From the IMG/VR virus record IMGVR_UViG_2565956708_000007: a stretch of 64,000 nucleotides of DNA. One strand, 5' to 3'. The position numbers and the translations under genes were made by a program. Positions 4,780 to 63,209 of this stretch are shown here, piece by piece. The DNA comes from a virus. Its lineage: Duplodnaviria; Heunggongvirae; Uroviricota; Caudoviricetes. A model generated the notes under the pieces. It searched no databases, had not been told where the DNA came from, and saw only the letters and a list, made by a program, of their open reading frames with translations. Numbering within the stretch: position 1 is the stretch's first letter; every line of letters begins with the position of its first letter.

Positions 4780-5823
4780 TTATCTAACGCTCGACGAGTG
4801 ACTTGTGATAGCGCCGACTCCAAGCGCGTAATCAAAGAACAATCGTTGATGCATCGCCAGCCTACCGTGCGTCTTCTCCCAATTATCGCGGTCACGCTCA
4901 ATATCACGCTGGCATGACTGGCACAGAGGAATAGCATAAATGTCATGCGCGCATAATCGACTATGACGAACGATATAAGGCGTAATGTGAGCGCCAGCTC
5001 CCGCAGCTCCACAGCCACAGCATGGACGGGAAGCCACAAAGTCCATGTACTCGGGCAATTTTAGCGATTGAAGTTTTGGTATTTTGAAATGCGCCATATC
5101 TGGGTCGGAGTCAACATCCACAGGGCATACTTTTGCACGCATTGGCGCGGCGCGTTCTTCCATCATCTGAACATATGCTGTAGCGCGATCGTCATACGGG
5201 CGAATATCCGCCTCTTTCAGAGGTCCGCTATCCTGCGGAGTAGCCTTCATCTTATTTATTGATATGCGGCAGACTTCTTCCGGCATCAGGTGCATCATGT
5301 TGCGCATGAAAGCCCACCAGCACAGTTCCTGAATACTTAAATCATGGCCATCTGAAAGCCCCATTTCCTGACGGGCGACATCCAGTATCCAGTTAACGCG
5401 ATTATTATGCAGCGTTTCTTTCAGCTCATTAAAACCACGCATCCGGTAATGGTTATCGTGATGCCAGCACAACAACACCGCGCTCTTGTCTCGTTCAGCG
5501 TGGACAATATGGTTGTCACACCAACTACGATCTGCGGCCTGGCATTGACCCTCTTTCCTACGCAACCACGCCACCAGCGAGTCAATTCCACCAATACGGC
5601 GAAACAGTTCATCGCTGTTAAAAAACGGCTGCAACGCCTCATTTGTTGCCATGGTTTGCTCGGTAACAACGAGGCCGTCTTCCATGTGCTCGATTAACTC
5701 ACGCGGCACCGGCTCCATAATAAATTTACGGCCAGCCTCCACCAGCTTTCTGACCTCCTGATCCACTTTGAACGTGGCGAGGCCAAGCTCTTTCTGTACA
5801 AAGGGAGTAATTATGGCTTTCAC
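4780..5823 (-). CDS. Cys-rich hypothetical protein downstream of doc (347 aa), possibly P1 pdcB
   Basis: long ORF between doc and lpa; [12 protein letters not shown] and CxxC motifs; function unknown. Confidence 0.55.
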
Positions 5824-5850
5824 ATCACACCTTTAATCACTGATTGGGCT

Positions 5851-6030
5851 TTATCTGCTGCCCGGCATTCTCTGTTTAAGCACAACCATTTCCTGACGGC
5901 ATAACACAGCAATAGCGGTCCTGACTCCAATTTGCTTACCAACCAGGTATTGCTTTACCTTGCGGCGGCTCACGCCATCAAGAAGCATCTTTAACGCTTC
6001 ACGAGACAACTTGTTGTATTTACGTGCCAT
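5851..6030 (-). CDS. Small basic hypothetical protein downstream of doc, possibly P1 pdcA
   Basis: short ORF; start taken at an internal Met to avoid a 17-nt overlap with doc. Confidence 0.35.
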   Translation of the reverse strand: MARKYNKLSREALKMLLDGVSRRKVKQYLVGKQIGVRTAIAVLCRQEMVVLKQRMPGSR

Positions 6031-6034
6031 TAAT

Positions 6035-6415
6035 CTACTCCGCAGAACCATACAATCTACGTAACGTGTCGGCGACAGAAGATACAGATATCTCGCCAGT
6101 CGCAGCGCCTACAGTAAGGTCTGCCAGTTCAGGTGAATCAAATACCTGCACCCCGTTACGGCGTAGAAATAGCAGCGCACTGTTTAGCGCGGTACGCTTA
6201 TTGGCATCATTGAATATATGCCCTCTCGCTGTAGCCACCAGGTAGGTGGCGGAGACTTCGAAAAGGTCGGTGATCTCTTCGTAGGCAACTCTGGCCTGAA
6301 CTCTCCCGATAATGGCCTCTGCCCTACCCGGATCAGACATTCCCGGCAGGCCGCCGTAGCGGCTTATATTCGCATCATGAAGCGCAACAAGTTCTTCCGG
6401 TGATATATGTCTCAT
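6035..6415 (-). CDS. doc: Doc toxin (Fic-family kinase), 126 aa
   Basis: [22 protein letters not shown], recognised as P1 Doc; start overlaps phd stop. Confidence 0.9.
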
Positions 6416-6636
6416 TATCGGTTAACCATTTCCTTGTTGGTGGAGTCCAGGGTGTCAAACAGGGATGCAAATTCAGCATCCAGCGCCGCTTTTTTGTAGG
6501 CTTCGAAAGTAGCCTTGCTGACAATTACTGCTGGCTCACGGCCTCTGCGGGTGATTTCAACCTCTTCCCCGGCTTCAACATTGTTGAGCACTTCAGAAAG
6601 GTTGCCACGCGCGGTACGGAAGTTAATGGATTGCAT
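6415..6636 (-). CDS. phd: Phd antitoxin, 73 aa
   Basis: [39 protein letters not shown], recognised as P1 Phd; ORF track begins two codons earlier. Confidence 0.85.
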
Positions 6637-6708
6637 AAACACCTCGTGTACTCGTTATGTGTACACAATTATAAACTTCACAGGCATAAAGCACCAGCAC
6701 TTTGCAGC

Positions 6709-7098
6709 TTAAATAACCGGACAATCATCAAATTCCCCACTTCGGGCATCATTGATGACATGAGTGATCACACCAAAAACAGCATTACTGCCCGTGTATC
6801 CATCGTCATCTACTGGTAACGCCTCTTTCTTCCCGGTGCTTAAGTCCTCCAGGTGCTGGCGCGGATACTTCCTGTATCTCTTTATGCGATATTCACCCTC
6901 CATAGCGCACACAAGCAGAGAACCATCAACCGGAGTAAGCGAGGAATCAACCACCAGCAAAGCACCCTGCAATATTCCCTCACGGTGATGGCTATCAGCT
7001 GCCCGCATGAAGTAGGTTGCTGATGGATGTCTAATTATCTGCTGATCAAGAGAAATTCGGCTTTCAACATAATCCGCCGCAGGAGAAGGGAAGCCCAT
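6709..7098 (-). CDS. humD: HumD, UmuD-like S24 peptidase family protein (129 aa)
   Basis: 129-aa ORF with a LexA box upstream; recognised as P1 humD. Confidence 0.8.
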   Translation of the reverse strand: MGFPSPAADYVESRISLDQQIIRHPSATYFMRAADSHHREGILQGALLVVDSSLTPVDGSLLVCAMEGEYRIKRYRKYPRQHLEDLSTGKKEALPVDDDGYTGSNAVFGVITHVINDARSGEFDDCPVI

Positions 7099-7116
7099 AG
7101 CGTTTTACCTCAATGA

Positions 7117-7136
7117 TACTGTTTATTCATACAGTA
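7117..7136 (-). promoter_or_regulatory. LexA (SOS) box upstream of humD
   Basis: TACTGTTTATTCATACAGTA fits CTGT-N8-ACAG. Confidence 0.75.
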
Positions 7137-7221
7137 TACATTGAAAAGGCATAGTTTGTGAAAGCGGGGTTTGTAGGCGCGCCACGCTGGGGGCTAATCA
7201 CATTTCTCCCCCATCTTGCCG

Positions 7222-7473
7222 TTATTTTTTTGGTGCATCCTCGTTCTGATACACCGGATCGCTCCCTTTTGGCAACTGGAGGCTTAACTGCCGGTAGTGC
7301 CGTAGCCGTTCCATGAAATAGGCGCGCAGGTTTTCCGGTTGCTCACGGGCCACCTGCTCTGCAATCACAGGTATATTCAGCCGTTCTTTGTAAGCAACGC
7401 CGCTGGCGGCAAGGTCTACGTTCACCTTGTCTCGCTCTTCCTGGCTTTTAGCTGCTATATTTCGATCTGACAC
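7222..7473 (-). CDS. hot: Hot, homolog of DNA polymerase III theta subunit (83 aa)
   Basis: [42 protein letters not shown] resembles HolE theta. Confidence 0.8.
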
Positions 7474-7505
7474 AAGAAACCTCCAGGAGTTAGTGGATCA
7501 GGCAC

Positions 7506-8125: not shown

Positions 8126-8789
8126 GGTCCACCTCATGCTTTTCAGCCACCAGCGGCAATAAAGCCCTGGCCATCTTATGAACCAATAGTGCATCAATAA
8201 TGCCAAGCGTATGCCCCGGCTTAATGTTTAATGCCGCCTCAAGGCGACACCTTTCCAGGCCACTTTTCTCGGCTTGTTTATGATGATCTGGTGTAATAAC
8301 GTCGCCCAAAACACGGCTAATTCTTTCTCGTAATTGCTGGGTGCCAGCACACTTGATCGCTGTATCGTGGAGACGGTTAACCAGTTCGCGATAAACATGC
8401 GGCTTAATTCGGATACGTTCACCGGTGACGCCCTTTCCTGGTGCTGGCACCGAACTATCCGGAATATCCGGATAGTTGCCAGCCTCGTAAGCTACCCGCA
8501 GCCAGTGCATGAATGTTTCAGTGGACACACAACCACAGTCCACATCGATTTTTCCGCGTTGCTGTTCCAGCCACTGCTCAAAATTCAATCTACACGTATT
8601 ACTTTCATGTTGCTCTTTTTGTCTCAAGGCCAGCACCTGTTGGGCCAGTTCCAGAACGATACCGGGTGACGCTAACCTCTCAAATTCCAATAAATAGTTT
8701 GCGTCAGGATGACAAGTAGCCTCGCCTGCAAAAAATACCAATTGCTGTAAGTATGCTGTCGTTAGAGTAGTCATTTCTTTTTGCGCCAT
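8109..8789 (-). CDS. Hypothetical protein (226 aa)
   Basis: ORF in operon context; no motif recognised. Confidence 0.5.
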   Translation of the reverse strand: MAQKEMTTLTTAYLQQLVFFAGEATCHPDANYLLEFERLASPGIVLELAQQVLALRQKEQHESNTCRLNFEQWLEQQRGKIDVDCGCVSTETFMHWLRVAYEAGNYPDIPDSSVPAPGKGVTGERIRIKPHVYRELVNRLHDTAIKCAGTQQLRERISRVLGDVITPDHHKQAEKSGLERCRLEAALNIKPGHTLGIIDALLVHKMARALLPLVAEKHEVDHANES

Positions 8790-9145
8790 TTCTTTTCACA
8801 TTCCTTAGTCCATTTTTCAATGTTCATTTTGGCAATATCAGTCATTCCATCACCTAAGAAATACTTTTTCCGGTACGTCTTGCACTTAAACCACACTACA
8901 ACAGCCACCAGCCAGAAAATAAAAGGCCATACGGCAATACCAACTCCAGCCGCGATAAAGCCCAATATCCATAAATGAAGCTCTCCAACTTCTGTTTCCG
9001 GCAATATTCTTAAAGAATTAAACAGCAGGCTGAACGAATGGTCGTATGCATTGGCAGTATAAGACATGCAATCCATATAATTAAAGTCATAGCCTGCGGC
9101 TGCCGCCCATAATGGGCGGTCAAGAAAATGTTTTAGTGTCATCAT
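8771..9145 (-). CDS. Small membrane protein (124 aa)
   Basis: hydrophobic stretch LWILGFIAAGVGIAVWPFIFWLVAVVVWF; basic C-terminus. Confidence 0.5.
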   Translation of the reverse strand: MMTLKHFLDRPLWAAAAGYDFNYMDCMSYTANAYDHSFSLLFNSLRILPETEVGELHLWILGFIAAGVGIAVWPFIFWLVAVVVWFKCKTYRKKYFLGDGMTDIAKMNIEKWTKECEKKWRKKK

Positions 9146-9151
9146 ATTAAT

Positions 9152-9445
9152 TTAAGGTTCAGACCAGTTATCTTCAATAGCAATGCTTAATCTTTGTAGC
9201 CATTCTGCTAATTTCAGCATTGCTTCTCTTTCGCTTAAACCACACGGAAAATCATCAAGCGATATTGTTGGCTTGAAGTTTCCCAAATTATCCATTTCAA
9301 CGGTCAGATTTTGCTCCAGAACGGTATTTCTTACGCGGCTATTGTGCCGAAGCAAATATACTGAACGTGATTTATTGGTTTTGTGGTCGAACGTATATTC
9401 GGTAAGTATCATCTGACTTCCGCCATGATTATTACCGCGCCACAT
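9152..9445 (-). CDS. Hypothetical protein (97 aa)
   Basis: ORF only. Confidence 0.4.
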   Translation of the reverse strand: MWRGNNHGGSQMILTEYTFDHKTNKSRSVYLLRHNSRVRNTVLEQNLTVEMDNLGNFKPTISLDDFPCGLSEREAMLKLAEWLQRLSIAIEDNWSEP

Positions 9446-9468
9446 AATTACTCCGTGTTAATTGAAAT

Positions 9469-9771
9469 TTAGCTATTAATCTTCACTTTTATCGCGAACA
9501 CCTTTACCGGTTTATCACCGAAGTGTGGATGTGTGATTGTTTTTATTTCATATCCGTTATACGGGACGTCAATTCTGCGACTGAAGTCTTCGCGCTTCGG
9601 ATATCCCTTTGTGATAATCAGGCGGTAATACTTACGGTTAACGAGGCGCTTATTCCAGTAGTCATTACACAGGCGATACTCTTCCGTTTTCTCCCCGCGA
9701 ATCATGGCATCGAAGTATTCACCTTTAACGGCAAGTTGCAGGTTAGCCATTACCTCACCTCCAGTCTCCAT
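9469..9771 (-). CDS. ASCH-like domain protein (100 aa)
   Basis: GEKTEEYR matches the ASCH GxKxxExR signature. Confidence 0.5.
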   Translation of the reverse strand: METGGEVMANLQLAVKGEYFDAMIRGEKTEEYRLCNDYWNKRLVNRKYYRLIITKGYPKREDFSRRIDVPYNGYEIKTITHPHFGDKPVKVFAIKVKINS

Positions 9772-38263: not shown

Positions 38264-38299
38264 TACCCTTCCTTCCAACCGGCTATGTTGGCCGGTTTA

Positions 38300-38400
38300 T
38301 TCAACTTATCCACAGCATAGATCCAATAAACAGATCCCAAAGAGAACCTAGGAAGATCCAAAGAAGATCCCGGATCGCTGTAAGCCGCGCCGTTCATGGC
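38300..38400 (+). other. Plasmid origin core: DnaA box and cluster of six GATC (Dam) sites
   Basis: TTATCCACA at 38306-38314; GATC at 38320, 38333, 38355, 38366, 38373, 38410, mostly within AGATCC heptamers. Confidence 0.75.
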
Positions 38401-38417
38401 CTGAAACGGGATCAACA

Positions 38418-38522
38418 TTGACTATACGCGATTTTATGTTGACTGTGTGCGATTTTATGTTGACTGCACGCGATTTATTGTTGACTATACGCGACAGAAA
38501 CGTTGACTGTACGCGATTTTAG
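38418..38522 (+). repeat. Five direct iterons upstream of repA (incC-type)
   Basis: TTGACTRYRCGCGATTTTATG units starting at 38418, 38439, 38460, 38481, 38503 (21-22 bp period). Confidence 0.85.
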
Positions 38523-38597
38523 AGCCTGAATATTCACAGCTGTTGATAACAGTCATCTAAATTAACGCCAGGCCGCGCCACACATGGAGAAACCACG

Positions 38598-39482
38598 ATG
38601 CCGGAAGAAAGTAAAGGCTTCCTTAGCGTTGAAGAAGTTGCAGGAAATACAGGAGAAATCCACAGCCTGAAGCCCAATAACAACAGCACTATACAACCTA
38701 TCGCTTTGTTGCGCTTAGGTGTGTTTGTGCCAACCTTAAAATCTACCAATGTGGCACTACGTCGCGGATCGTCAGTTACAACAAACACAACGAACGCAAC
38801 TGAAGAACTATCAAGCCTCAAAATTGTTGAGCAGGAAGGCTATGAGGGAATTGAAATTCATGGTCCACGCCTGGATATGGATACTGATTTTAAGGTGTGG
38901 GTGGGCATAACCTCCGCGTTGTTTGACTACGCACCTGATGATGACGGCATAATCACCCTGCCATTCTCCGAGTTTGCCGATCGATGCGGCTATCCACGTA
39001 AGCGCCTTTCAAAGGCGTTCCGTAAAAGTATTGATGACTCTCTGACACGCATTCAGCAGACAGTTGTCAAATTCCGCTTCCCGGCGGCAAAAGGTCATCT
39101 CAATAACATTAACGTCAACTTGTTGGCATATAGCAGCCTGAATACCGAGCTTGATGTTATCGAGATCCAGCCGCAGAAACAGCTATCTGAACTTTACTAT
39201 GTTGACTATAAGCGAATCCTGAAGCTGAAGATGCTGGATAAACTAGGGCGCAAAGAGACGGCCAAGGTACTGTATACATTCTTTGAGGCTCTACCCGCCA
39301 ACCCGGCACCTGTCAGCATTGAGCGCCTTAGAGCGAGGCTTAATCTCAAATCATCCGTTAGCGTGCAAAATAGCGTTATCAGAAAAGCCATGAAAGATTT
39401 GGAAGCTATTGAATATCTTAAATTTTCAGAGATAAAAAACGGCAGGAAAATCGGCTTCCAGATCCATAAGCGCAATCCATAA
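38598..39482 (+). CDS. repA: RepA plasmid replication initiator (P1/P7 family, divergent from P1 RepA)
   Basis: shares blocks with P1 RepA (PVALMRLGVFVP, GPRLDMDTDFK, FVIVHSRNP-like end) but differs in the N-terminus and in iteron sequence. Confidence 0.85.
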   Translation: MPEESKGFLSVEEVAGNTGEIHSLKPNNNSTIQPIALLRLGVFVPTLKSTNVALRRGSSVTTNTTNATEELSSLKIVEQEGYEGIEIHGPRLDMDTDFKVWVGITSALFDYAPDDDGIITLPFSEFADRCGYPRKRLSKAFRKSIDDSLTRIQQTVVKFRFPAAKGHLNNINVNLLAYSSLNTELDVIEIQPQKQLSELYYVDYKRILKLKMLDKLGRKETAKVLYTFFEALPANPAPVSIERLRARLNLKSSVSVQNSVIRKAMKDLEAIEYLKFSEIKNGRKIGFQIHKRNP

Positions 39483-39745
39483 TATTGACTATATGCGATA
39501 GCGAGAAGTTGACTATAGGCGACATTCGTTGACGCTGGTGGATTTTTGCTGGCGTCAATATTCTGCAAGTCGCTATTGAGATGGCTTTTAGGGGCATTTC
39601 ATCGCGTATAGTCAACGTTTCTCCCGACAATATCTTACATAGTCGATCTTTGGTGGAGTTAAATCGACTACAGTCAACTTTTGACTGTAGTCACATCGCG
39701 CATAGTCAACTATTCACATTAACCTTCGCGCATAGTCAACATTTG
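39483..39745 (+). repeat. incA-type iteron array downstream of repA, iterons in both orientations
   Basis: TTGACTATATGCGA, TTGACTATAGGCGA, TTGACTGTAGTCA direct; TCGCGTATAGTCAA, TCGCGCATAGTCAA (x2), GACTACAGTCAA inverted. Confidence 0.75.
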
Positions 39746-39774
39746 CGCGGTTCTCATCAAGCAGTGGTATTGAT

Positions 39775-40584
39775 ATGCAAGAAGAGAAACAACACTACCT
39801 CTACGTTCTGGTGCCAGAGAACGGAGATACTTTTAAAATCGGCATTTCATGTGGTCCATTGGCACGGTTTAAAGGGCTATAAGTGAGTCCCGATTTTGCG
39901 CTTTCACGGGTCTATCGTGGTACGCGTTTGGCAATAGTTAATCTTGAGCGGGCTTTACACGCAACCTTTTTCCCCTGGAATGCGCCGTGGGAGAAAAGCG
40001 CTGGTGGCGGGCATACTGAATGGTTTACACGAGAGTGTCTTGATAAGGTTTTGGCTCATATCGAATATCTAAATGATATGTGGGGAGGGATTCTCGAGCG
40101 CATTAAGTCGAATGATTTACTTCAGCGTCCAGTAGATGCTGCCCGCTCTTTCGAAAAAGAGCTGGATGTTACTTCTATCGTGACTTTCAAAGATGACGCA
40201 GGAATGAGGGACGTGGCTTATGTCTCCATATCTGGCTATGAACCGGACGCGATCCGCGCTCAATGTGAATTGCTGAAAGCAATGTTTATGCTTCGGACTA
40301 AATATTCCTGGGAGACAAGGCGGGTGTGCTTCCCTATGGAAGAGTTAACCGCCACCATTGATTCCCAGCTTTACCACGATAATCCAGAGAAGTTTTTTAG
40401 CCTTTTAGCCGGTAATGGGCTTAACTGTGTGTCCGGGCTGGGGCGAAGTAGAATCCAACATGCCTCGCTCTTCGGTCCCTTCTTTTACGATCGACACGGG
40501 TACTTTGAGGCTGAACTTCCGGCGCTTACGCGTGCTATAGATACTATCGATTTCGAACGATTATTCGCTGCTCTTAGCAAATAA
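39775..40584 (+). pseudogene. GIY-YIG / T5orf172-family protein gene interrupted by an in-frame TAA at 39880-39882
   Basis: ATG at 39775 encodes HYLYVLVPENGDTFKIGIS (GIY-YIG N-terminal motif); TAA in frame; same frame continues ...NLERALHATFF...GGHTEWF. Confidence 0.5.
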
Positions 40585-40591
40585 CACTGAT

Positions 40592-40612
40592 GCCCCTGAA
40601 CGGGGCTTTTTT
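40592..40612 (+). terminator. Intrinsic terminator
   Basis: GCCCC-tgaac-GGGGC followed by TTTTTT. Confidence 0.75.
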
Positions 40613-40705
40613 GTGCCCTCCTTGTAACTCTCAATCGTGCAAAATGAACCAAACATGCAGAGAATGCTATGTACAAGCATCTGTGCATACATTATTATTT
40701 TATGC

Positions 40706-40746
40706 AGCATTTTTAATTAAATTCAAAAATACAGCATAAAGGATGA
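40706..40746 (+). promoter_or_regulatory. Imperfect inverted repeat in parA promoter region, probable par operator
   Basis: TTTATGCAGCATTTTT ... AAAAATACAGCATAAA (14/16 complementary). Confidence 0.5.
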
Positions 40747-40752
40747 CTTTCG

Positions 40753-41949
40753 ATGAGTGATTCCAGCCAGCTTCACAAGGTTGCTCAAAGAGCAAACAGA
40801 ATGCTCAATGTTCTGACTGAACAAGTACAGTTGCAAAAGGATGAGCTACACGCGAACGAGTTTTACCAGGTCTATGCGAAAGCGGCACTGGCAAAATTGC
40901 CTCTACTGACTCGTGCGAACGTTGACTATGCCGTAAGTGAAATGGAAGAAAAGGGTTATGTTTTCGATAAACGCCCTGCTGGCTCTTCAATGAAATATGC
41001 GATGTCAATTCAGAACATCATTGACATATATGAACATCGCGGAGTGCCAAAATACCGGGATCGCTACAGCGAAGCGTATGTGATTTTCATCTCCAATCTT
41101 AAAGGCGGTGTGTCAAAAACTGTATCGACGGTTTCTCTGGCGCATGCAATGCGTGCTCATCCTCATCTTCTGATGGAAGATTTAAGGATTCTGGTTATTG
41201 ACCTTGATCCGCAATCTTCAGCAACGATGTTTTTAAGCCATAAACACTCTATTGGTATCGTAAACGCAACATCTGCACAGGCTATGTTGCAGAATGTAAG
41301 CCGTGAAGAGCTGTTAGAGGAGTTTATTGTTCCTTCTGTTGTACCTGGGGTTGACGTTATGCCTGCGTCGATTGACGATGCCTTTATTGCATCCGATTGG
41401 AGAGAGCTGTGCAATGAGCATCTACCGGGTCAGAACATCCATGCAGTCCTGAAAGAAAATGTGATTGATAAGCTGAAGAGCGATTATGACTTTATCCTCG
41501 TTGATAGTGGTCCTCACCTTGACGCCTTCCTGAAAAATGCTTTGGCCTCGGCCAATATACTGTTTACACCTCTGCCGCCTGCAACGGTTGATTTCCACTC
41601 ATCGCTTAAATACGTTGCCCGCCTTCCTGAGTTGGTGAAACTCATTTCGGATGAAGGCTGTGAGTGTCAGCTTGCAACTAACATTGGATTTATGTCCAAG
41701 TTGAGTAACAAGGCAGACCATAAGTATTGCCATAGCCTGGCTAAAGAAGTGTTCGGTGGGGATATGCTTGATGTTGTCCTCCCTCGCCTTGACGGTTTTG
41801 AACGCTGCGGCGAGTCTTTTGACACTGTTATTTCAGCTAACCCGGCAACGTATGTTGGTAGTGCTGATGCATTGAAGAACGCGCGAATTGCTGCGGAAGA
41901 TTTTGCTAAAGCAGTTTTTGACCGTATTGAATTTATCAGATCTAACTGA
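40753..41949 (+). CDS. parA: ParA partition ATPase (398 aa)
   Basis: MSDSSQLHKVAQRANRMLNV N-terminus recognised as P1 ParA; deviant Walker A KGGVSKT. Confidence 0.9.
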   Translation: MSDSSQLHKVAQRANRMLNVLTEQVQLQKDELHANEFYQVYAKAALAKLPLLTRANVDYAVSEMEEKGYVFDKRPAGSSMKYAMSIQNIIDIYEHRGVPKYRDRYSEAYVIFISNLKGGVSKTVSTVSLAHAMRAHPHLLMEDLRILVIDLDPQSSATMFLSHKHSIGIVNATSAQAMLQNVSREELLEEFIVPSVVPGVDVMPASIDDAFIASDWRELCNEHLPGQNIHAVLKENVIDKLKSDYDFILVDSGPHLDAFLKNALASANILFTPLPPATVDFHSSLKYVARLPELVKLISDEGCECQLATNIGFMSKLSNKADHKYCHSLAKEVFGGDMLDVVLPRLDGFERCGESFDTVISANPATYVGSADALKNARIAAEDFAKAVFDRIEFIRSN

Positions 41950-41965
41950 GGAGTAAGAAACCCCC

Positions 41966-42967
41966 ATGTCAAAGAAAAACAGACCAACAATTGGGCGAAC
42001 CCTTAATCCTTCAATATTAAGCGGATTTGATAGTTCTTCAGCCTCTGGCGATCGAGTCGAGCAGGTATTCAAGTTATCAACTGGTCGCCAGGCCACATTT
42101 ATTGAAGAGGTAATACCTCCGAACCAGGTAGAAAGCGATACCTTTGTTGATCAGCATAACAACGGGCGTGACCAGGCATCTCTTACGCCAAAATCATTAA
42201 AAAGTATCCGAAGCACTATTAAGCATCAGCAATTTTACCCTGCAATAGGTGTCAGACGGGCTACAGGGAAAATTGAAATTTTGGATGGTTCCCGGCGTCG
42301 AGCTTCTGCCATCTTAGAGAACGTAGGGTTGCGGGTTTTAGTCACGGACCAGGAGATCAGCGTTCAGGAAGCGCAAAATTTAGCGAAAGACGTTCAGACA
42401 GCATTGCAGCACAGCATTCGAGAAATAGGTCTGCGTTTGATGCGAATGAAAAATGATGGGATGAGTCAGAAGGATATTGCAGCCAAAGAAGGACTGTCTC
42501 AGGCGAAGGTCACGCGTGCTCTCCAGGCAGCGAGTGCTCCGGAAGAATTAGTCGCCCTTTTCCCTGTGCAGTCGGAATTAACCTTTTCGGACTACAAAAC
42601 GCTTTGTGCTGTTGGCGACGAAATGGGGAACAAGAATTTAGAGTTTGATCAGCTTATTCAAAACATATCCCCGGAAATAAACGACATCTTATCCATTGAA
42701 GAAATGGCCGAAGATGAAGTTAAAAATAAAATCCTGCGCTTGATAACAAAGGAAGCCTCACTACTCACGGATAAAGGTTCTAAAGATAAGTCCGTAGTTA
42801 CTGAATTATGGAAATTTGAGGACAAGGATCGCTTTGCAAGGAAGCGCGTGAAAGGCCGTGCATTTTCTTATGAGTTTAATCGACTTTCAAAAGAGCTACA
42901 GGAAGAACTCGACAGGATGATTGGGCATATCCTTAGAAAGAGCCTCGATAAAAAGCCGAAGCCTTAA
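41966..42967 (+). CDS. parB: ParB partition protein (333 aa)
   Basis: 333-aa ORF downstream of parA, followed by parS with ParB box motifs. Confidence 0.9.
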   Translation: MSKKNRPTIGRTLNPSILSGFDSSSASGDRVEQVFKLSTGRQATFIEEVIPPNQVESDTFVDQHNNGRDQASLTPKSLKSIRSTIKHQQFYPAIGVRRATGKIEILDGSRRRASAILENVGLRVLVTDQEISVQEAQNLAKDVQTALQHSIREIGLRLMRMKNDGMSQKDIAAKEGLSQAKVTRALQAASAPEELVALFPVQSELTFSDYKTLCAVGDEMGNKNLEFDQLIQNISPEINDILSIEEMAEDEVKNKILRLITKEASLLTDKGSKDKSVVTELWKFEDKDRFARKRVKGRAFSYEFNRLSKELQEELDRMIGHILRKSLDKKPKP

Positions 42968-42969
42968 AC

Positions 42970-43056
42970 TTTCGCCATTCAAATTTCACTGTTAACCTAC
43001 TGTTTTTAAAGTAAATCAATCTAAAATTTCAAGGTGAAATCGCCACGATTTCACCT
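42970..43056 (+). other. parS centromere (ParB box A heptamers and box B hexamers around an A/T-rich IHF-like core)
   Basis: TCGCCA-ttcaa-ATTTCAC ... GTGAAAT-CGCCAC-GATTTCACC. Confidence 0.85.
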
Positions 43057-43125
43057 TGGATTTTACCTTCCTCCCCTACTCCCGAAAAAAATAAAAAAAT
43101 TGCTTGTCACGAGAAAGTCAACAAG

Positions 43126-43141
43126 TGACTTTCAATAAAAT
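43126..43141 (+). promoter_or_regulatory. Putative late promoter (TGACT-N5-TAAAAT) inside an inverted repeat
   Basis: GAAAGTCA-acaag-TGACTTTC then caaTAAAAT. Confidence 0.45.
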
Positions 43142-43171
43142 CTCTTCCGAAAAGGGATTCACACAAGTGCC

Positions 43172-44899
43172 TTGTGTTTAAGGAAGAGTAAATTGAGTAA
43201 CTTACGCGAATACCAGAATCGTATTGCAGATATCGCAAAACGCTCTAAAGCTGTGCTTGGCTGGGCAAGCACTGCGCAGTTCGGTACTGATAACCAATTC
43301 ATTAAAGATGATGCCGCGCGTGCCGCATCTATCCTTGAAGCTGCACGTAAAGACCCGGTTTTTGCGGGTATCTCTGATAATGCCACCGCTCAAATCGCTA
43401 CAGCGTGGGCAAGTGCACTGGCTGACTACGCCGCAGCACATAAATCTATGCCGCGTCCGGAAATTCTGGCCTCCTGCCACCAGACGCTGGAAAACTGCCT
43501 GATTGAGTCCACCCGCAATAGCATGGATGCCACTAATAAAGCGATGCTGGAATCCGTCGCAGCAGAGATGATGAGCGTTTCTGACGGTGTTATGCGTCTG
43601 CCTTTATTCCTCGCGATGATCCTGCCTGTTCAGTTGGGGGCAGCTACCGCTGATGCGTGTACCTTCATTCCGGTTACGCGTGACCAGTCCGACATCTATG
43701 AAGTCTTTAACGTGGCAGGTTCCTCTTTTGGTTCTTATGCTGCTGGTGATGTTCTGGACATGCAATCCGTCGGTGTGTACAGCCAGTTACGCCGCCGCTA
43801 TGTGCTGGTGGCAAGCTCCGATGGCACCAGCAAAACCGCAACCTTCAAGATGGAAGACTTCGAAGGCCAGAATGTACCAATCCGAAAAGGTCGCACTAAT
43901 ATCTACGTTAACCGTATTAAGTCTGTTGTTGATAACGGTTCCGGCAGCCTACTTCACTCGTTTACTAATGCTGCTGGTGAGCAAATCACTGTTACCTGCT
44001 CTCTGAACTACAACATTGGTCAGATTGCCCTGTCGTTCTCCAAAGCGCCGGATAAAGGCACTGAGATCGCAATTGAGACGGAAATCAATATTGAAGCCGC
44101 TCCTGAGCTGATCCCGCTGATCAACCACGAAATGAAGAAATACACCCTGTTCCCAAGCCAGTTCGTTATCGCGGCTGAGCACACGGTACAGGCGGCGTAT
44201 GAAGCACAGCGTGAATTTGGTCTGGACCTGGGTTCCCTACAGTTCCGCACCCTGAAGGAATACCTGTCTCATGAACAGGATATGCTGCGTCTTCGCATCA
44301 TGATCTGGCGTACTCTTGCGAACGACACCTTTGACATCGCTCTGCCGGTTAACCAGTCCTTTGATGTATGGGCAACCATCATTCGTGGCAAATTCCAGAC
44401 TGTATATCGCGACATTATTGAGCGCGTTAAATCTTCTGGTGCGATGGGGATGTTTGCTGGTGCTGATGCAGCATCTTTCTTCAAACAGTTGCCGAAGGAT
44501 TTCTTCCAGCCAGCCGAAGACTATATCCAGACTCCGTATGTTCACTACATCGGTACCCTGTTCGGTAACGTGAAAGTGTACGAAGTACCTGCTGGTATTT
44601 GTAAGAACTTAACGACAGAGAACATTCAGTTCAGCTCGATGGATGTGCTGTGCTACGTCCGTGATGAAAATCCGGGTAAAGCAGGCTTCGTGACTGGTGA
44701 TGCTGTCCCGGCCATCCCGTTCCAGCATCCGACCACTCCGGCGCTGGTCAACCGTACCACGCTGTGGGGTTCGGCTATCAACGATATGCACCCACGCAAC
44801 GGCGCTGATTACTTCACTCGTGTAACGCTGACAATGGCCAAAAAAGGCGGGCTTAACTTCATTAGCGGCGACACGATTGATGCCGGTGACTCTGAGTAA
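43172..44899 (+). CDS. Putative major head protein (P1 gene 23-like); start may be TTG at 43193
   Basis: 575-aa ORF immediately after parS in the position of P1 gene 23; call by position. Confidence 0.55.
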   Translation: MCLRKSKLSNLREYQNRIADIAKRSKAVLGWASTAQFGTDNQFIKDDAARAASILEAARKDPVFAGISDNATAQIATAWASALADYAAAHKSMPRPEILASCHQTLENCLIESTRNSMDATNKAMLESVAAEMMSVSDGVMRLPLFLAMILPVQLGAATADACTFIPVTRDQSDIYEVFNVAGSSFGSYAAGDVLDMQSVGVYSQLRRRYVLVASSDGTSKTATFKMEDFEGQNVPIRKGRTNIYVNRIKSVVDNGSGSLLHSFTNAAGEQITVTCSLNYNIGQIALSFSKAPDKGTEIAIETEINIEAAPELIPLINHEMKKYTLFPSQFVIAAEHTVQAAYEAQREFGLDLGSLQFRTLKEYLSHEQDMLRLRIMIWRTLANDTFDIALPVNQSFDVWATIIRGKFQTVYRDIIERVKSSGAMGMFAGADAASFFKQLPKDFFQPAEDYIQTPYVHYIGTLFGNVKVYEVPAGICKNLTTENIQFSSMDVLCYVRDENPGKAGFVTGDAVPAIPFQHPTTPALVNRTTLWGSAINDMHPRNGADYFTRVTLTMAKKGGLNFISGDTIDAGDSE

Positions 44900-44959
44900 T
44901 CAGGGGAAGTTCTCCGTTTAACATAGCGCCCCCGTGCGGGGCGCATAACAGGGAAAGTT

Positions 44960-46549
44960 ATGTCTCAATATTCAATTCAACAGTCATTAGGTAATGCATC
45001 CGGCGTCGCGGTTAGCCCGATCAATGCCGATGCGACGTTATCTACCGGTGTTGCATTAAATAGCAGCTTATGGGCTGGTATTGGCGTATTTGCGCGTGGC
45101 AAGCCGTTTACTGTTCTTGCGGTTACTGAGTCCAATTACGAAGATGTTCTCGGCGAACCGCTGAAGCCGTCTTCCGGCTCACAGTTCGAACCAATTCGCC
45201 ATGTATACGAAGCTATTCAGCAAACGTCTGGTTATGTTGTTCGCGCTGTTCCGGATGATGCGAAGTTCCCGATTATTATGTTCGATGAATCAGGCGAACC
45301 GGCTTACAGTGCGTTGCCATACGGTTCTGAAATTGAACTTGATAGTGGCGAAGCCTTTGCTATCTACGTTGATGATGGTGATCCGTGTATTTCACCTACC
45401 CGTGAGTTAACCATCGAAACGGCAACAGCGGACAGCGCGGGTAATGAACGCTTCCTCTTAAAACTGACCCAGACGACTTCGCTCGGCGTGGTAACGACCC
45501 TGGAGACACACACTGTGTCTTTGGCGGAAGAAGCGAAAGATGACATGGGCCGCTTGTGTTATCTGCCTACGGCTCTGGAAGCCCGTTCTAAATATCTGCG
45601 CGCGGTTGTTAATGAAGAGCTGATTTCGACAGCGAAAGTAACAAACAAAAAATCGTTGGCGTTCACTGGCGGTACCAACGGCGATCAGTCGAAAATCTCA
45701 ACCGCTGCGTACCTGCGTGCGGTTAAAGTGCTGAATAATGCGCCGTACATGTACACCGCTGTTCTCGGCCTGGGTTGCTATGACAATGCGGCGATCACCG
45801 CGTTAGGTAATATCTGTTCTGATCGCCTGATTGATGGCTTCTTTGATGTCAAACCGACATTGACGTATACGGAAGCGCTCTCTGCTGTTGAAGATACCGG
45901 TTTACTTGGTACCGATTATGTAAGCTGTGCTGTCTATCACTTCCCGTTCTCCTGCAAAGACAAATGGACCCAATCCCGTGTGGTCTTCGGTCTGTCTGGC
46001 GCGGCGTATGCGGCGAAAGCTCGTGGCGTCAAGAAAAACTCTGATGTCGGCGGTTGGCATTACTCACCGGCTGGTGAAGAACGTGCCGTCATTGCTCGTG
46101 CGTCAATTCAACCGCTGTATCCGGAAGATACCCCGGACGAAGAAGCAATGGTCAAGGGCCGTCTCAATAAAGTATCTGTTGGCACCTCTGGCCAGATGAT
46201 CATCGACGATGCTTTAACTTGCTGCACGCAGGATAACTATCTGCACTTCCAGCACGTCCCATCCCTGATGAATGCAATCAGCCGTTTCTTTGTCCAGTTA
46301 GCCCGACAGATGAAGCATAGCCCGGACGGTATTACTGCGGCTGGCCTGACTAAAGGGATGACCAAACTTTTAGATCGCTTTGTCGCCTCCGGCGCTCTGG
46401 TGGCTCCTCGTGATCCTGATGCTGACGGTACAGAACCGTATGTGCTGAAAGTTACGCAGGCGGAATTCGATAAATGGGAAGTAGTCTGGGCCTGCTGCCC
46501 GACTGGCGTAGCCCGTCGTATCCAGGGCGTACCGCTGCTTATTAAGTAA
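44960..46549 (+). CDS. Tail sheath protein (P1 gene 22-like)
   Basis: 529 aa; C-terminal region with GGWHYSPAG and following pattern resembling contractile sheath proteins. Confidence 0.6.
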   Translation: MSQYSIQQSLGNASGVAVSPINADATLSTGVALNSSLWAGIGVFARGKPFTVLAVTESNYEDVLGEPLKPSSGSQFEPIRHVYEAIQQTSGYVVRAVPDDAKFPIIMFDESGEPAYSALPYGSEIELDSGEAFAIYVDDGDPCISPTRELTIETATADSAGNERFLLKLTQTTSLGVVTTLETHTVSLAEEAKDDMGRLCYLPTALEARSKYLRAVVNEELISTAKVTNKKSLAFTGGTNGDQSKISTAAYLRAVKVLNNAPYMYTAVLGLGCYDNAAITALGNICSDRLIDGFFDVKPTLTYTEALSAVEDTGLLGTDYVSCAVYHFPFSCKDKWTQSRVVFGLSGAAYAAKARGVKKNSDVGGWHYSPAGEERAVIARASIQPLYPEDTPDEEAMVKGRLNKVSVGTSGQMIIDDALTCCTQDNYLHFQHVPSLMNAISRFFVQLARQMKHSPDGITAAGLTKGMTKLLDRFVASGALVAPRDPDADGTEPYVLKVTQAEFDKWEVVWACCPTGVARRIQGVPLLIK

Positions 46550-60430: not shown

Positions 60431-61860
60431 GTAAAACAACACCGACTAAAGACAGTATTCGTGCAGAGTTTGAAGAGCTTGTCGAGAAAGATTCATTCTG
60501 GTCGAAGTTTGTCGGCTCTCAATTTGTCTCGATGCTGACATTGTTTATTACCCAGATTGTCTACAGGTGCTTTCAGTATGCCGATGCGGCGCTGGCTGAA
60601 GGCTTTATATCGACCGCGACGCGGCGTTCCTCTATCCTGGCAGCGGCAGAAACGAATAGTTACGTTGGTACCAAGCCAACACCGTCATCGGGGATGATTG
60701 AGATCACCGCCACAAGTGAAGATGCCCCAGCGGTAATTCCCAAAAACATGCCTTTAATATCTGACGACCAGTACCCTTACATGACTATGGATGTATGCAG
60801 GTTGGTTGACGGCACCGGTACGGTAGAAGTGGCACAGTTGGAAATCCAGGAGGTGACATATACCGTTACGGCTGCCAAAGAATTTCTGGAAGTCGTGTTA
60901 TCAAAGGCTCTCACTGCTGTCTGCTATAAGCTGGAAGTATTCGTGACGACCGATGGTAAGACCACGCAGTGGTCTTCCAGCACAATGTTCCGGTTAGCTG
61001 GTAGTAAAAGCCAGGTCTACGTTGAGTTTTATAAACCATCCGAACAGTTGGGTGTCCGATTCGGCGATGGGCTAATTGGGCAAATACCGCCAGAAGGCTC
61101 GACAATTACGCTTAAGGTATGGTGCACCAACGGCGATATAACCCTGGTTGCTGGCCAAAACCTGACTCCTGTTGATTCTGCGGCTAATTTAGCTAATTTG
61201 ATTTCAGTTAAGACAACGACACCTATAACCGCAGGTACCGATGCTGAAACAACGGAGATCACACGTAACCGTGCACAATATTACCTTGCCTATGATGATC
61301 AGGTCGTATGGGGCGGGGACTATACGTATTTTCTGGTGCGTAACATCCCGGGACTGTCCTGGGTAAAGGCATGGGGCGAAGGCCAGCAAGAGAAATTAGA
61401 TGGTGCTTATAATGTTCGGAATATCAATAAGATATTTATTTCAGGATGGCATCCAAACAAAAGCCAGTCAGAGCTTGAAGAAATGATCCTGGCCGCCTTT
61501 AAGAAGGTGCCGAATGAGTTGAACAAGAAATTCTCGTATAAAGAGGTCAGAAAACTACCCTTTAAGATCACCATCACTGGGCGGATATCGGCAAGCCTGA
61601 CCATTGAGAACGTGACTGATGAGCTGAAGTCGGCACTGGAAACAAAATTTGGGCGTGACTCAACTTTCTTTGATCCGAACCGTGTCGGCAAGTACATCCT
61701 AATCAAGAAAAAAGACGTTTGGGCATTTATCGAAACGCTGGGTTATTTCCGCGACTTTTATCTGGAATTTGTCGAGTGGAATGAGTCCAACGGCTTTTAC
61801 GATTTCGTTTATCTGGATACAGAAAACTCCACCTTTAATATTTCGTATGAGGAGGAGTGA
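60427..61860 (+). CDS. Hypothetical baseplate protein (477 aa)
   Basis: ORF in tail block. Confidence 0.5.
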   Translation: MSKTTPTKDSIRAEFEELVEKDSFWSKFVGSQFVSMLTLFITQIVYRCFQYADAALAEGFISTATRRSSILAAAETNSYVGTKPTPSSGMIEITATSEDAPAVIPKNMPLISDDQYPYMTMDVCRLVDGTGTVEVAQLEIQEVTYTVTAAKEFLEVVLSKALTAVCYKLEVFVTTDGKTTQWSSSTMFRLAGSKSQVYVEFYKPSEQLGVRFGDGLIGQIPPEGSTITLKVWCTNGDITLVAGQNLTPVDSAANLANLISVKTTTPITAGTDAETTEITRNRAQYYLAYDDQVVWGGDYTYFLVRNIPGLSWVKAWGEGQQEKLDGAYNVRNINKIFISGWHPNKSQSELEEMILAAFKKVPNELNKKFSYKEVRKLPFKITITGRISASLTIENVTDELKSALETKFGRDSTFFDPNRVGKYILIKKKDVWAFIETLGYFRDFYLEFVEWNESNGFYDFVYLDTENSTFNISYEEE

Positions 61861-62696
61861 TGCAGCGTTCCTGGTTTAATAACCGGCTTACATCAGCTAA
61901 GCAAAAGTCATTACTTTATAAATCATTGGCTGATTTGGTTCAGTCAATGATGGACACCTTTGTTGACCCATGGTTGGAGCGAATTACCAACCGGAAGTCT
62001 ATTTTCTCCATGAGCAAGGAGGATCTGGAGACTAGGACAAATGAACTTGGCCAGTTTTTTACTATCAGAACGTCGAATTCATCTTCCGTTCCGATGTTGT
62101 TACAACAGCGGTTTGATGAGATCCATTTTAAGGGTACTGAACGCCCTATAAACCAGACAATTTATCGCGAATTTAACGGTATATCGGTTTTATGGGATCC
62201 CATATATGCTCCGGTGGACTTTGAACGTCATCCCTATGGCACGGTCCTGATTCCAGAAAGCACACTGGAAACCACCGGCGGCACATTCGGCGAGATGTTT
62301 CTGACTTCCAGAGGAATGATCAGTATTCCCATAAACGACTTGGCCCGGACAATGGGTATTACTGGAACGATAGATCAGTCCGCAATTACAGAAGAAATTC
62401 TCAGAAAGTTTAATCAGTTCGTAAAGCCTCTACTGCCACTGCATATAGTGTTTGATGGGCTTACGCTCTATTTGTCGGTTGTTGTAAATGAACAGGCCGA
62501 CATGATCACTTTGAATGAGATTTCTGATACCGAAAAAGCATTCTGCTGGTTTGAAACTTCGGATACAACTTCGCTTACTGAAGTTACGTCGATTAACGCC
62601 CCGATCACTGCAACGCCGGGCGGCACTATTGTGAAAGCAACGCCTACGTTTGATCGCACCCGCGCAGATGATTTGCTGTTGGATAGCGATGCGTGA
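61857..62696 (+). CDS. Hypothetical baseplate/tail protein (279 aa)
   Basis: ORF; followed by a GC-rich hairpin 62702-62722. Confidence 0.5.
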   Translation: MMQRSWFNNRLTSAKQKSLLYKSLADLVQSMMDTFVDPWLERITNRKSIFSMSKEDLETRTNELGQFFTIRTSNSSSVPMLLQQRFDEIHFKGTERPINQTIYREFNGISVLWDPIYAPVDFERHPYGTVLIPESTLETTGGTFGEMFLTSRGMISIPINDLARTMGITGTIDQSAITEEILRKFNQFVKPLLPLHIVFDGLTLYLSVVVNEQADMITLNEISDTEKAFCWFETSDTTSLTEVTSINAPITATPGGTIVKATPTFDRTRADDLLLDSDA

Positions 62697-62774
62697 CAAT
62701 CACCCCGTCCGCAGGGCGGGGTGACAAGTTACTTATCTTACAATGAGGCTTCACAACATTGATTAGGGAAAATC

Positions 62775-63209
62775 ATGTCTGACGTCTCAACAAACCTCTA
62801 TAAGAGTCAGTTGTTGGACTATTACTATCAGCGGCGCGCTGAATCGTCCATTAACAAAGGCTCTCGATTTTTAATCAGCAAGGCCGTTTTCGGTACCAGT
62901 TCACTGGTTACTAAGAAAGGAGATGGCACTTATGAGATTGGAGAACTGCCAAAGGCTTTCGATCTGGCAGAACTGACCAGTCAATTTTGCACCATCAACC
63001 TCGTCCCAACCTACTCAGGCGGGATAATTACTGTCCGAATGGACCTTGATCAAAGTCAGTTGCAGGAAGGGAAAAACTACCCATTCAACACTCTGGTTGT
63101 TCTGGATAACGAGAATAAGCCAATCGCCATTATTTGTGTCCAAGAAGACTCGCTGTATGTGGGCAAAACATATACCGCAGTTATGGCCATAAACTCGACT
63201 ACAGCATAA
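62775..63209 (+). CDS. Tail-fibre-associated protein (P1 gene R-like)
   Basis: 144-aa ORF immediately upstream of the tail fibre gene. Confidence 0.5.
   Translation: MSDVSTNLYKSQLLDYYYQRRAESSINKGSRFLISKAVFGTSSLVTKKGDGTYEIGELPKAFDLAELTSQFCTINLVPTYSGGIITVRMDLDQSQLQEGKNYPFNTLVVLDNENKPIAIICVQEDSLYVGKTYTAVMAINSTTA

Follow-up and report, generated by a model that had tools for sequence, protein, structure and literature searches.

The 64-kb window, i.e., the whole stretch of phage DNA analysed here, most likely carries the replicon by which a P1-like phage-plasmid is maintained as a low-copy plasmid prophage. It is of the p0111 type, belongs to the P1 oriR/repA/incA family and most likely works as that of P1 does; a probability of roughly 0.9 is given to this reading. 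A sequence-only reading of the same DNA had already seen a DnaA box, five direct iterons and repA between positions 38300 and 39745, and all of them are present where it had placed them. The elements of the replicon, of the cassette that contains it, and of the adjacent partition operon are as follows (positions in the window):

38297 to 38391, plus strand: left transition zone, delimited by pairwise alignment and the blastn segment 35213-38391
38306 to 38314, plus strand: DnaA box TTATCCACA, exact motif match (9/9)
38319 to 38413, plus strand: cluster of six GATC (Dam) sites, which in the alignment matches the five Dam sites annotated in P1 oriR
38416 to 38522, plus strand: five direct origin iterons (incC equivalent) with core TTGACTRYRYGCGA, found by repeat search and weight matrix
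38541 to 38549, minus strand: candidate DnaA-box-like site TTATCAACA (8/9) between the iterons and repA
38598 to 39482, plus strand: repA of the p0111 type, for a predicted iteron-binding initiator of 294 aa of the Rep3/RepE winged-helix class
39200 to 39221 (also given as 39202-39215), plus strand: iteron-like site TTGACTATAAGCGA within repA, 1 mismatch, 15.6 bits, encoding VDYKR
39483 to 39548, plus strand: proximal incA-like array of two direct iterons and a variant site, found by repeat search and matrix scan
39527 to 39548 (core 39529-39546), plus strand: the variant site TTGACGCTGGTGGATTTT, weaker but strictly conserved
39596 to 39741, minus strand: distal incA-like array of four strong inverted iterons (22-mers) starting at 39596, 39658, 39690 and 39720
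near 39636-39650, minus strand: degenerate inverted site
39681 to 39692, plus strand: iteron half-site, forming a 12-bp palindrome with 39666-39677
39775 to 40584, plus strand: T5orf172/GIY-YIG-family gene of 810 bp, part of the p0111 cassette
40592 to 40616, plus strand: terminator-like hairpin with a T run, at the end of the cassette
40753 to 41949, plus strand: P1-type parA (context, outside the swapped cassette)
41966 to 42967, plus strand: P1-type parB (context, outside the swapped cassette)

The DnaA box lies at the outer edge of the origin and is followed by the GATC cluster, as in origins of the P1 type. The GATC sites start at 38320, 38333, 38355, 38366, 38373 and 38410; the 100-bp stretch holding these six is the densest of the window, in which no other 100 bp contains five or more. 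With an expectation of 0.39 GATC per 100 bp, the Poisson probability of six is ~3e-6. The sequence-only reading had set all six in AGATCC heptamers. The number was right, but the context AGATCC(A/C) is found in only four of them, the remaining two reading GGATCG and then GGATCA. Directly 5' of repA, five direct iterons (units of 21/22 bp, starting at 38418, 38439, 38460, 38481 and 38503) follow each other at spacings of 21/21/21/22 bp, about two helical turns apart, which is again the P1-type arrangement. The iteron core that had been proposed is present, although its wording had to be changed: the second origin iteron carries TGCGA, hence the core is better written as TTGACTRYRYGCGA. A weight matrix made from the five origin iterons was used to scan both strands of the entire window. 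The 12 highest-scoring sites all fell within 38416-39741; the 12th scored 15.6 bits, and the best site in the background 12.0. The presence of the origin, repA and array elements at these positions, far beyond chance, is confirmed.

A second iteron array begins 2 bp past the stop codon of repA. As had been claimed, it contains sites in both orientations: those at 39483 and 39507 are direct and the four strong ones of the distal part are inverted. The proximal part thus holds two direct iterons plus the variant site and the distal part four inverted ones plus one or two degenerate copies, so that the array as a whole comprises six strong and two or three degenerate sites. Such a proximal direct/distal inverted organization right after repA is that of a P1-type replicon. 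Three sites in the control region have no counterpart in P1, namely the variant site TTGACGCTGGTGGATTTT (39529-39546), the head-to-head palindrome of 12 bp (39666-39692) and the iteron-like site within repA (39202-39215). The last of these is identical in the L003 repA, which is 75% identical to that of the window. The idea that this identity reflects constraint at the DNA level was dropped, as 17 identical bases are unexceptional in an alignment in which conserved protein motifs give unbroken identity over 22-32 bp.

The start codon of repA is preceded by GGAGA at 7 nt. In Pfam, its product scores 27.3 bits with Rep3_C (cut-off 21.1) and 22.0 bits with Rep3_N (cut-off 22.4), the latter being 0.4 bit short, while no NCBIfam model matches either this RepA or that of P1. 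PDB sequences, searched with RepA by itself and then with a profile of 15 sequences, yielded chance-level matches only, and the relation to RepE, π and RctB was therefore reached through a predicted structure and Foldseek. The AlphaFold model, built on a 20-sequence alignment, has a mean pLDDT of 72. Its best matches in the PDB were RctB domains 2-3, RepE of F, the WH1 domains of MSBI1.176 and pPS10 RepA, and π of R6K, with probabilities of ~1.0; global TM-scores were low (0.29-0.37) and those of matches to WH1 only were 0.58-0.62 when normalised to target length. By the Pfam matches and this model, RepA can be placed among the winged-helix iteron initiators of the Rep3/RepE class.

The locus was compared with that of annotated P1 (NC_005856, 56000-66000) and with P7. 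In P1, the order is upfA, two DnaA boxes, five Dam sites, five incC iterons, repA, nine incA iterons, Ppar, parA and parB, and in P1 and P7 the incA copies 7-9, which are proximal to repA, are oriented like incC while copies 1-6 are inverted. The window follows the same order of elements and the same orientation logic, in line with the P1 oriR/incC/repA/incA layout that had been recognised from the sequence. On the repA side of the iterons, where the window has the DnaA-box-like site TTATCAACA, DnaA boxes are present in P1 too. The two loci differ in detail: P1 has two tandem outer DnaA boxes and the window one, the nine incA iterons of P1 and P7 (3 + 6) stand against six strong ones (2 + 4), and the window alone has an 810-bp gene between incA and the par promoter.

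This common layout, together with par genes identical to those of P1, could suggest a plain P1/P7 IncY replicon and a mistaken idea of the P1 sequence in the sequence-only reading. That explanation is refuted by the RepA comparison and by iteron scans in both directions. RepA is 42% identical to P1 RepA (115/272, E 9e-71), with the first ~23 residues unaligned, and 42% identical to P7 RepA. The P1 iteron ATGTGTGCTGGAGGGAAA, which had 11 matches in the P1 locus, is absent from the window even when as many as 3 mismatches are allowed, and a scan of the P1 locus for the window iteron TTGACTRYRYGCGA found none; the two iteron types are unrelated. A RepA and iterons of P1 specificity, on which IncY membership depends, are therefore lacking by both measures. 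The departure of the RepA N-terminus and of the iterons from P1, which had been noted in the sequence-only reading, was thus borne out by alignment, neither being identical to the P1 reference.

Outside the replicon the resemblance to P1 is of a different order. ParA is identical to the P1 reference in 397 of its 398 residues, as expected from its description as P1-like, and ParB in all 333; P7 ParB is only 43% identical to the latter. By blastn, 35213-38391 matches P1 at 95.6% and 40651-45966 at 98.8%, and in the segment between them (38392-40650) the sole piece that can be aligned with P1 is 59 bp long. On the left, high identity to P1 stops at ~38296, and the right junction at 40651 precedes the -35 sequence of Ppar by 19 bp, according to the P1 annotation and a promoter scan match at 40670-40698. 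A cassette of ~2.36 kb (38297-40650), situated between upfA and the par promoter, thus takes the place of ~1.6 kb of P1 (roughly 61313-62913). It contains the origin, repA, the downstream array, the T5orf172/GIY-YIG gene and the terminator-like hairpin. From the sharp steps in identity on both flanks it follows that the cassette arrived, or left, by recombination. The replicon swap within a P1-like backbone that had been postulated is upheld by the contrast between 42% RepA identity and near-identical par genes with flanks of 95.6-98.8%, and the comparison supports cassette replacement inside a P1 backbone.

Part of the origin can still be aligned with P1: 38297-38391, with the DnaA box and the GATC repeats, is ~75% identical to P1 oriR. 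Since this segment is alignable, and since the same arrangement of DnaA box, motif and GATC sites can be read in a relative from Proteus, the host-factor half of the origin seems to be conserved in the replicon family as a whole, the initiator-specific half having changed together with RepA. The module is, moreover, homologous to that of P1 throughout in layout, and this homology together with the alignable DnaA/GATC half makes a common ancestry of the P1 and p0111 modules real. Both observations would also fit vertical descent within the P1 lineage, in which RepA and the iterons evolved rapidly in place and cassettes were not exchanged. Such a course of events is nevertheless highly unlikely. 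It does not explain why flanks of 95.6-98.8% identity give way to essentially unalignable DNA in the space of a few bases at the right end (40651) and of ~100 bp at the left, nor the extra gene in the cassette that P1 is missing. It is also at odds with the finding of a module with an 85% identical RepA at a different locus in D6-related phage-plasmids, and with the 17 changes between IncY and p0111 inferred across a core-gene tree (PMC11165635).

In a search of 5.8 billion proteins, p0111 RepA came out as a compact cluster of 381 member sequences with 99% identity. Its relatives are, in order, a full-length protein with 85% identity, one of 53% from Proteus mirabilis and a broad cloud at 44-49%, SSU5-like and RepFIB-like initiators among them. 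The 85% identical RepA belongs to D6-related phage-plasmids of ~90 kb from E. coli and E. marmotae (e.g., NZ_CP085065.1; MOB-suite rep_cluster_2164). Their replicon has the iteron type of the window, the same origin of DnaA box, GATC sites and five iterons, and likewise 2(+1) direct and 4 inverted sites, but it is located between transglycosylase and tail genes instead of upfA and par, and it is without the T5orf172 gene. At the DNA level, it resembles the window at ~75-84% in the functional parts and at ~30-50% in the spacers. Because this variant shares the origin layout at another locus, the replicon family can be said to have moved between the two P1/D6 subgroups. A closer donor of the cassette was not found outside phage-plasmids.

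The P. mirabilis plasmid replicon with the 53% identical RepA shows the same DnaA box, a GGATAG.TCCAATAA motif, GATC sites and 21-bp iterons, which have the frame TTGA...CGATTTT in common with those of the window. In its locus the origin is duplicated, and a 13-copy 43-bp array lies downstream of repA. The variant site TTGACGCTGGTGGATTTT of the window resembles the iterons of this replicon. The SSU5/RepFIB-like RepA proteins, with SSU5-like and Klebsiella/Salmonella RepB-family members at 44-49% identity, are, like the Proteus RepA, of the same initiator family. Both these replicons and that of Proteus differ from the window in iteron core and in backbone.

RepA of the window is 100% identical to that of RCS47, phi456 and several records named "P1", and 99.7% identical to that of SJ46 and JL22. 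By its identity of 99.7-100% to RepA of JL22, SJ46 and RCS47, of which JL22 was typed as p0111 (PMC9603915), the replicon can be assigned to the p0111 type. No material difference in the replicon separates the window from the p0111 phage-plasmids RCS47, SJ46, JL22 and phi456 (PlasmidFinder reference AP010962). RCS47 has the same order upfA-ori-repA-incA-T5orf172-parA-parB, and the 24 kb surrounding the locus align to P1 with 98.3% identity over 80% of their length and to RCS47 with 98.6% over 99%. A region of 1.48 kb was found at 97.4-99.8% identity in 12 phage records, the values for the group of RCS47, SJ46, JL22 and phi456 being 97.8-99.1%. The same segment is present in 399 PLSDB plasmids, in 396 of them at 95% identity or more, and nearly all of these plasmids are from Escherichia, Salmonella or Shigella.

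That a replicon swap such as the one proposed here is also seen in other phage-plasmid replicon types had been suggested, and the IncY/p0111 alternative is indeed in print (PMC9603915; PMC7969092). In JL22, a repA' gene (p0111) and an unknown gene were described instead of repA (IncY), and 55 P1-like phage-plasmids were divided into 24 of type p0111 and 31 of type IncY (PMC9603915). Two replicase families occupying one position, typed as IncY or p0111, have been distinguished and their compatibility was inferred (PMC7969092). SJ46 RepA was reported to be 42% identical to P1 RepA (PMC5241659). In Salmonella, 132 p0111 and 94 IncY elements were counted, and the 17 changes between the two types mentioned above were inferred there (PMC11165635). 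Compatibility of p0111 and IncY has been stated as expected (PMC7969092; PMC11165635). In the literature searched, no data were found on replication, copy number or incompatibility of p0111, and the only publication with both "p0111" and "iteron" was a general review. The partition proteins of RCS47 have been described as P7-type (PMC5241659); this is not borne out, as RCS47 ParB is identical to that of both the window and P1 in 333 of 333 residues.

To see how the replicon varies, an alignment was made of 21 distinct p0111 replicons, which came from IMG/VR contigs and from reference records. In repA, 39 of the 41 variable sites are at third codon positions. The DnaA box TTATCCACA is invariant, none of the 84 positions in the six strong downstream iteron cores is polymorphic, and the proximal array (39483 to 39548) has zero polymorphism in the 21 relatives. 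In the origin iterons, polymorphism is limited to the central RYRY positions. This pattern points to purifying selection on RepA and its iteron sites. It also bears on the notion that the replicon is vestigial or secondary and that the element is maintained by another origin. Such a notion might be entertained with 64 kb of the element visible and with a neighbouring T5orf172 gene that is a pseudogene in this copy. It is extremely unlikely, in view of an intact repA under strong purifying selection and of iteron cores and a DnaA box that, save for the RYRY positions of the origin iterons, do not vary among the 21 sequences. In addition, the replicon occupies the single plasmid-replicon slot of P1 beside an intact P1 par operon, and surveys type P1-like elements by their repA (PMC9603915; PMC11165635).

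As a working replicon of the P1 family, the module would function by analogy with P1 as follows. Monomers of RepA would bind the five origin iterons and DnaA the flanking box. Opening, and sequestration once the origin has fired, would take place at the Dam-methylated GATC repeats, on which DnaA, Dam and SeqA would act. The downstream array would keep the copy number near one through titration of RepA and pairing of origins. RepA might also repress its own promoter in the iteron region. A scan with a simple sigma-70 consensus revealed no promoter for repA in the plus strand of 38416-38597. Each origin iteron holds the -35-like hexamer TTGACT, and an acceptable -10 was not found by hand at 16-19 nt from it. 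As no repA promoter was found between the iterons and the start codon, iteron-based autoregulation by RepA is proposed by analogy only. RepA and the iterons have diverged together from those of P1, and therefore no cross-reaction would be expected between the two systems, from which a separate incompatibility specificity is inferred.

The gene that follows the array matches Pfam T5orf172 with an E value of 7e-6 and belongs to phrog_2876; its protein has no match in PADLOC or NCBIfam. In the window it is broken by a CAA>TAA nonsense mutation at 39880-39882 (codon 36). A frameshift was considered as the defect and rejected, the alignment with pM121-2 showing the single CAA>TAA change. The nonsense codon is common to pMTY1887_NA2 (AP026465.1) and absent from 38 IMG/VR contigs, which have the intact allele. 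Among the PLSDB plasmids, the T5orf172 gene is present in 401 and the replicon in 399; the two travel together. With the three sites of its control region that P1 lacks, the p0111 cassette may differ from its P1 counterpart in more than specificity, and the nuclease-like T5orf172 gene could promote the repeated exchanges between IncY and p0111 by a homing-like process of cut and repair; this reading is unlikely. If it were true, a selfish nuclease, instead of chance recombination, would be the driving force of the replicon swap.

In conclusion, the exchange of IncY for p0111 is an already published event, real but ordinary, and the present analysis leaves current understanding unchanged. Its small additions are the exact junctions, a map of the individual iterons and of their conservation, the related replicon on D6-like elements and the T5orf172 nonsense mutation. 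Within the literature searched, the papers that name the p0111 type do not seem to spell out its origin at the base level, and a base-level map could guide incompatibility experiments. The type of replicon decides which plasmids and phage-plasmids coexist in one cell. Since genes for ESBL and other resistances are found on P1-like elements, the distinction between p0111 and IncY is useful for surveillance.

Replicons whose RepA is 85 % identical to that of the window are found at 5700-7130 of the E. coli record DABKFZ010000018.1 (L003) and at 77400-78900 of NZ_CP085065.1. The replicon of these D6-related phage-plasmids of ~90 kb shares its iteron type and layout with the p0111 replicon of the window, is flanked by a transglycosylase gene and tail genes, and is typed by MOB-suite as rep_cluster_2164; ~7 PLSDB records match it at at least 95 % identity. 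A further relative, with a RepA 53 % identical to that of the window, is located at 5260-7500 of Proteus mirabilis CP120531.1. Here, the origin is present in two tandem copies upstream of repA (5380-5483 and 5733-5828). Both copies have ~5 iterons of 21 bp, together with GATC sites and a DnaA box. Downstream of repA, at 6924-7500, a 43-bp unit consisting of two iteron-like halves forms a tandem array of 13.4 copies.

Two sites in the downstream array of the window and one inside repA were compared with one or both of these relatives:

39529-39546, TTGACGCTGGTGGATTTT, third of the direct sites in the downstream array, with an iteron-matrix score at background level
39666-39692, perfect 12-bp palindrome GACTACAGTCAA ctt TTGACTGTAGTC, made up of an inverted iteron and an adjoining + strand half-site
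39200-39221, iteron-like site within repA, TTGACTATAAGCGA, with 1 mismatch and a score of 15.6 bits vs a background maximum of 12.0

The variant site at 39529-39546 is unchanged across p0111 relatives and conserved in L003, there as TTGACGCTGGCGGATTT; it is similar to the Proteus iterons (TTGAYGCTAGTCGATTTT). The palindrome, which is absent from L003, recalls operators to which other Rep3 initiators bind as dimers. The intragenic site coincides with the VDYKR codons of repA, does not vary among 21 p0111 sequences and is identical in the L003 repA (75 % identical). The corresponding codons of the P1 and Proteus repA genes show no resemblance to their own iterons, and the similarity seen in the window may be due to chance.

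The last gene of the cassette carries a nonsense mutation:

39775-40584, T5orf172/GIY-YIG-family gene, with CAA>TAA in codon 36 (39880-39882)

The same TAA allele is carried by pMTY1887_NA2 (AP026465.1), in which only the 233-aa remainder is annotated. In an exact-match scan of IMG/VR contigs, codon 36 was CAA in 38 and TAA in none.

Outside the cassette, the following features were noted:

8687-9688 of the RCS47 RefSeq record, parB, compared with 41966-42967 of the window
29634-29709, 31710-31785 and 31788-31863, - strand, three tRNA genes with anticodons CAT, TGT and GTT

RCS47 ParB is identical to that of the window and of P1 at 333/333 residues; P7 ParB is 43 % identical to that of the window. 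This is at odds with the description of the RCS47 partition proteins as P7-type (PMC5241659). The same three tRNA genes have been reported in SJ46 (PMC5241659).

In the MOB-suite typing distributed with PLSDB, the P1-like p0111 plasmids NZ_CP083587.1 and AP026465.1 carry the replicon label 'IncHI1B'. This appears to be a naming artefact, and it could misdirect automated typing.
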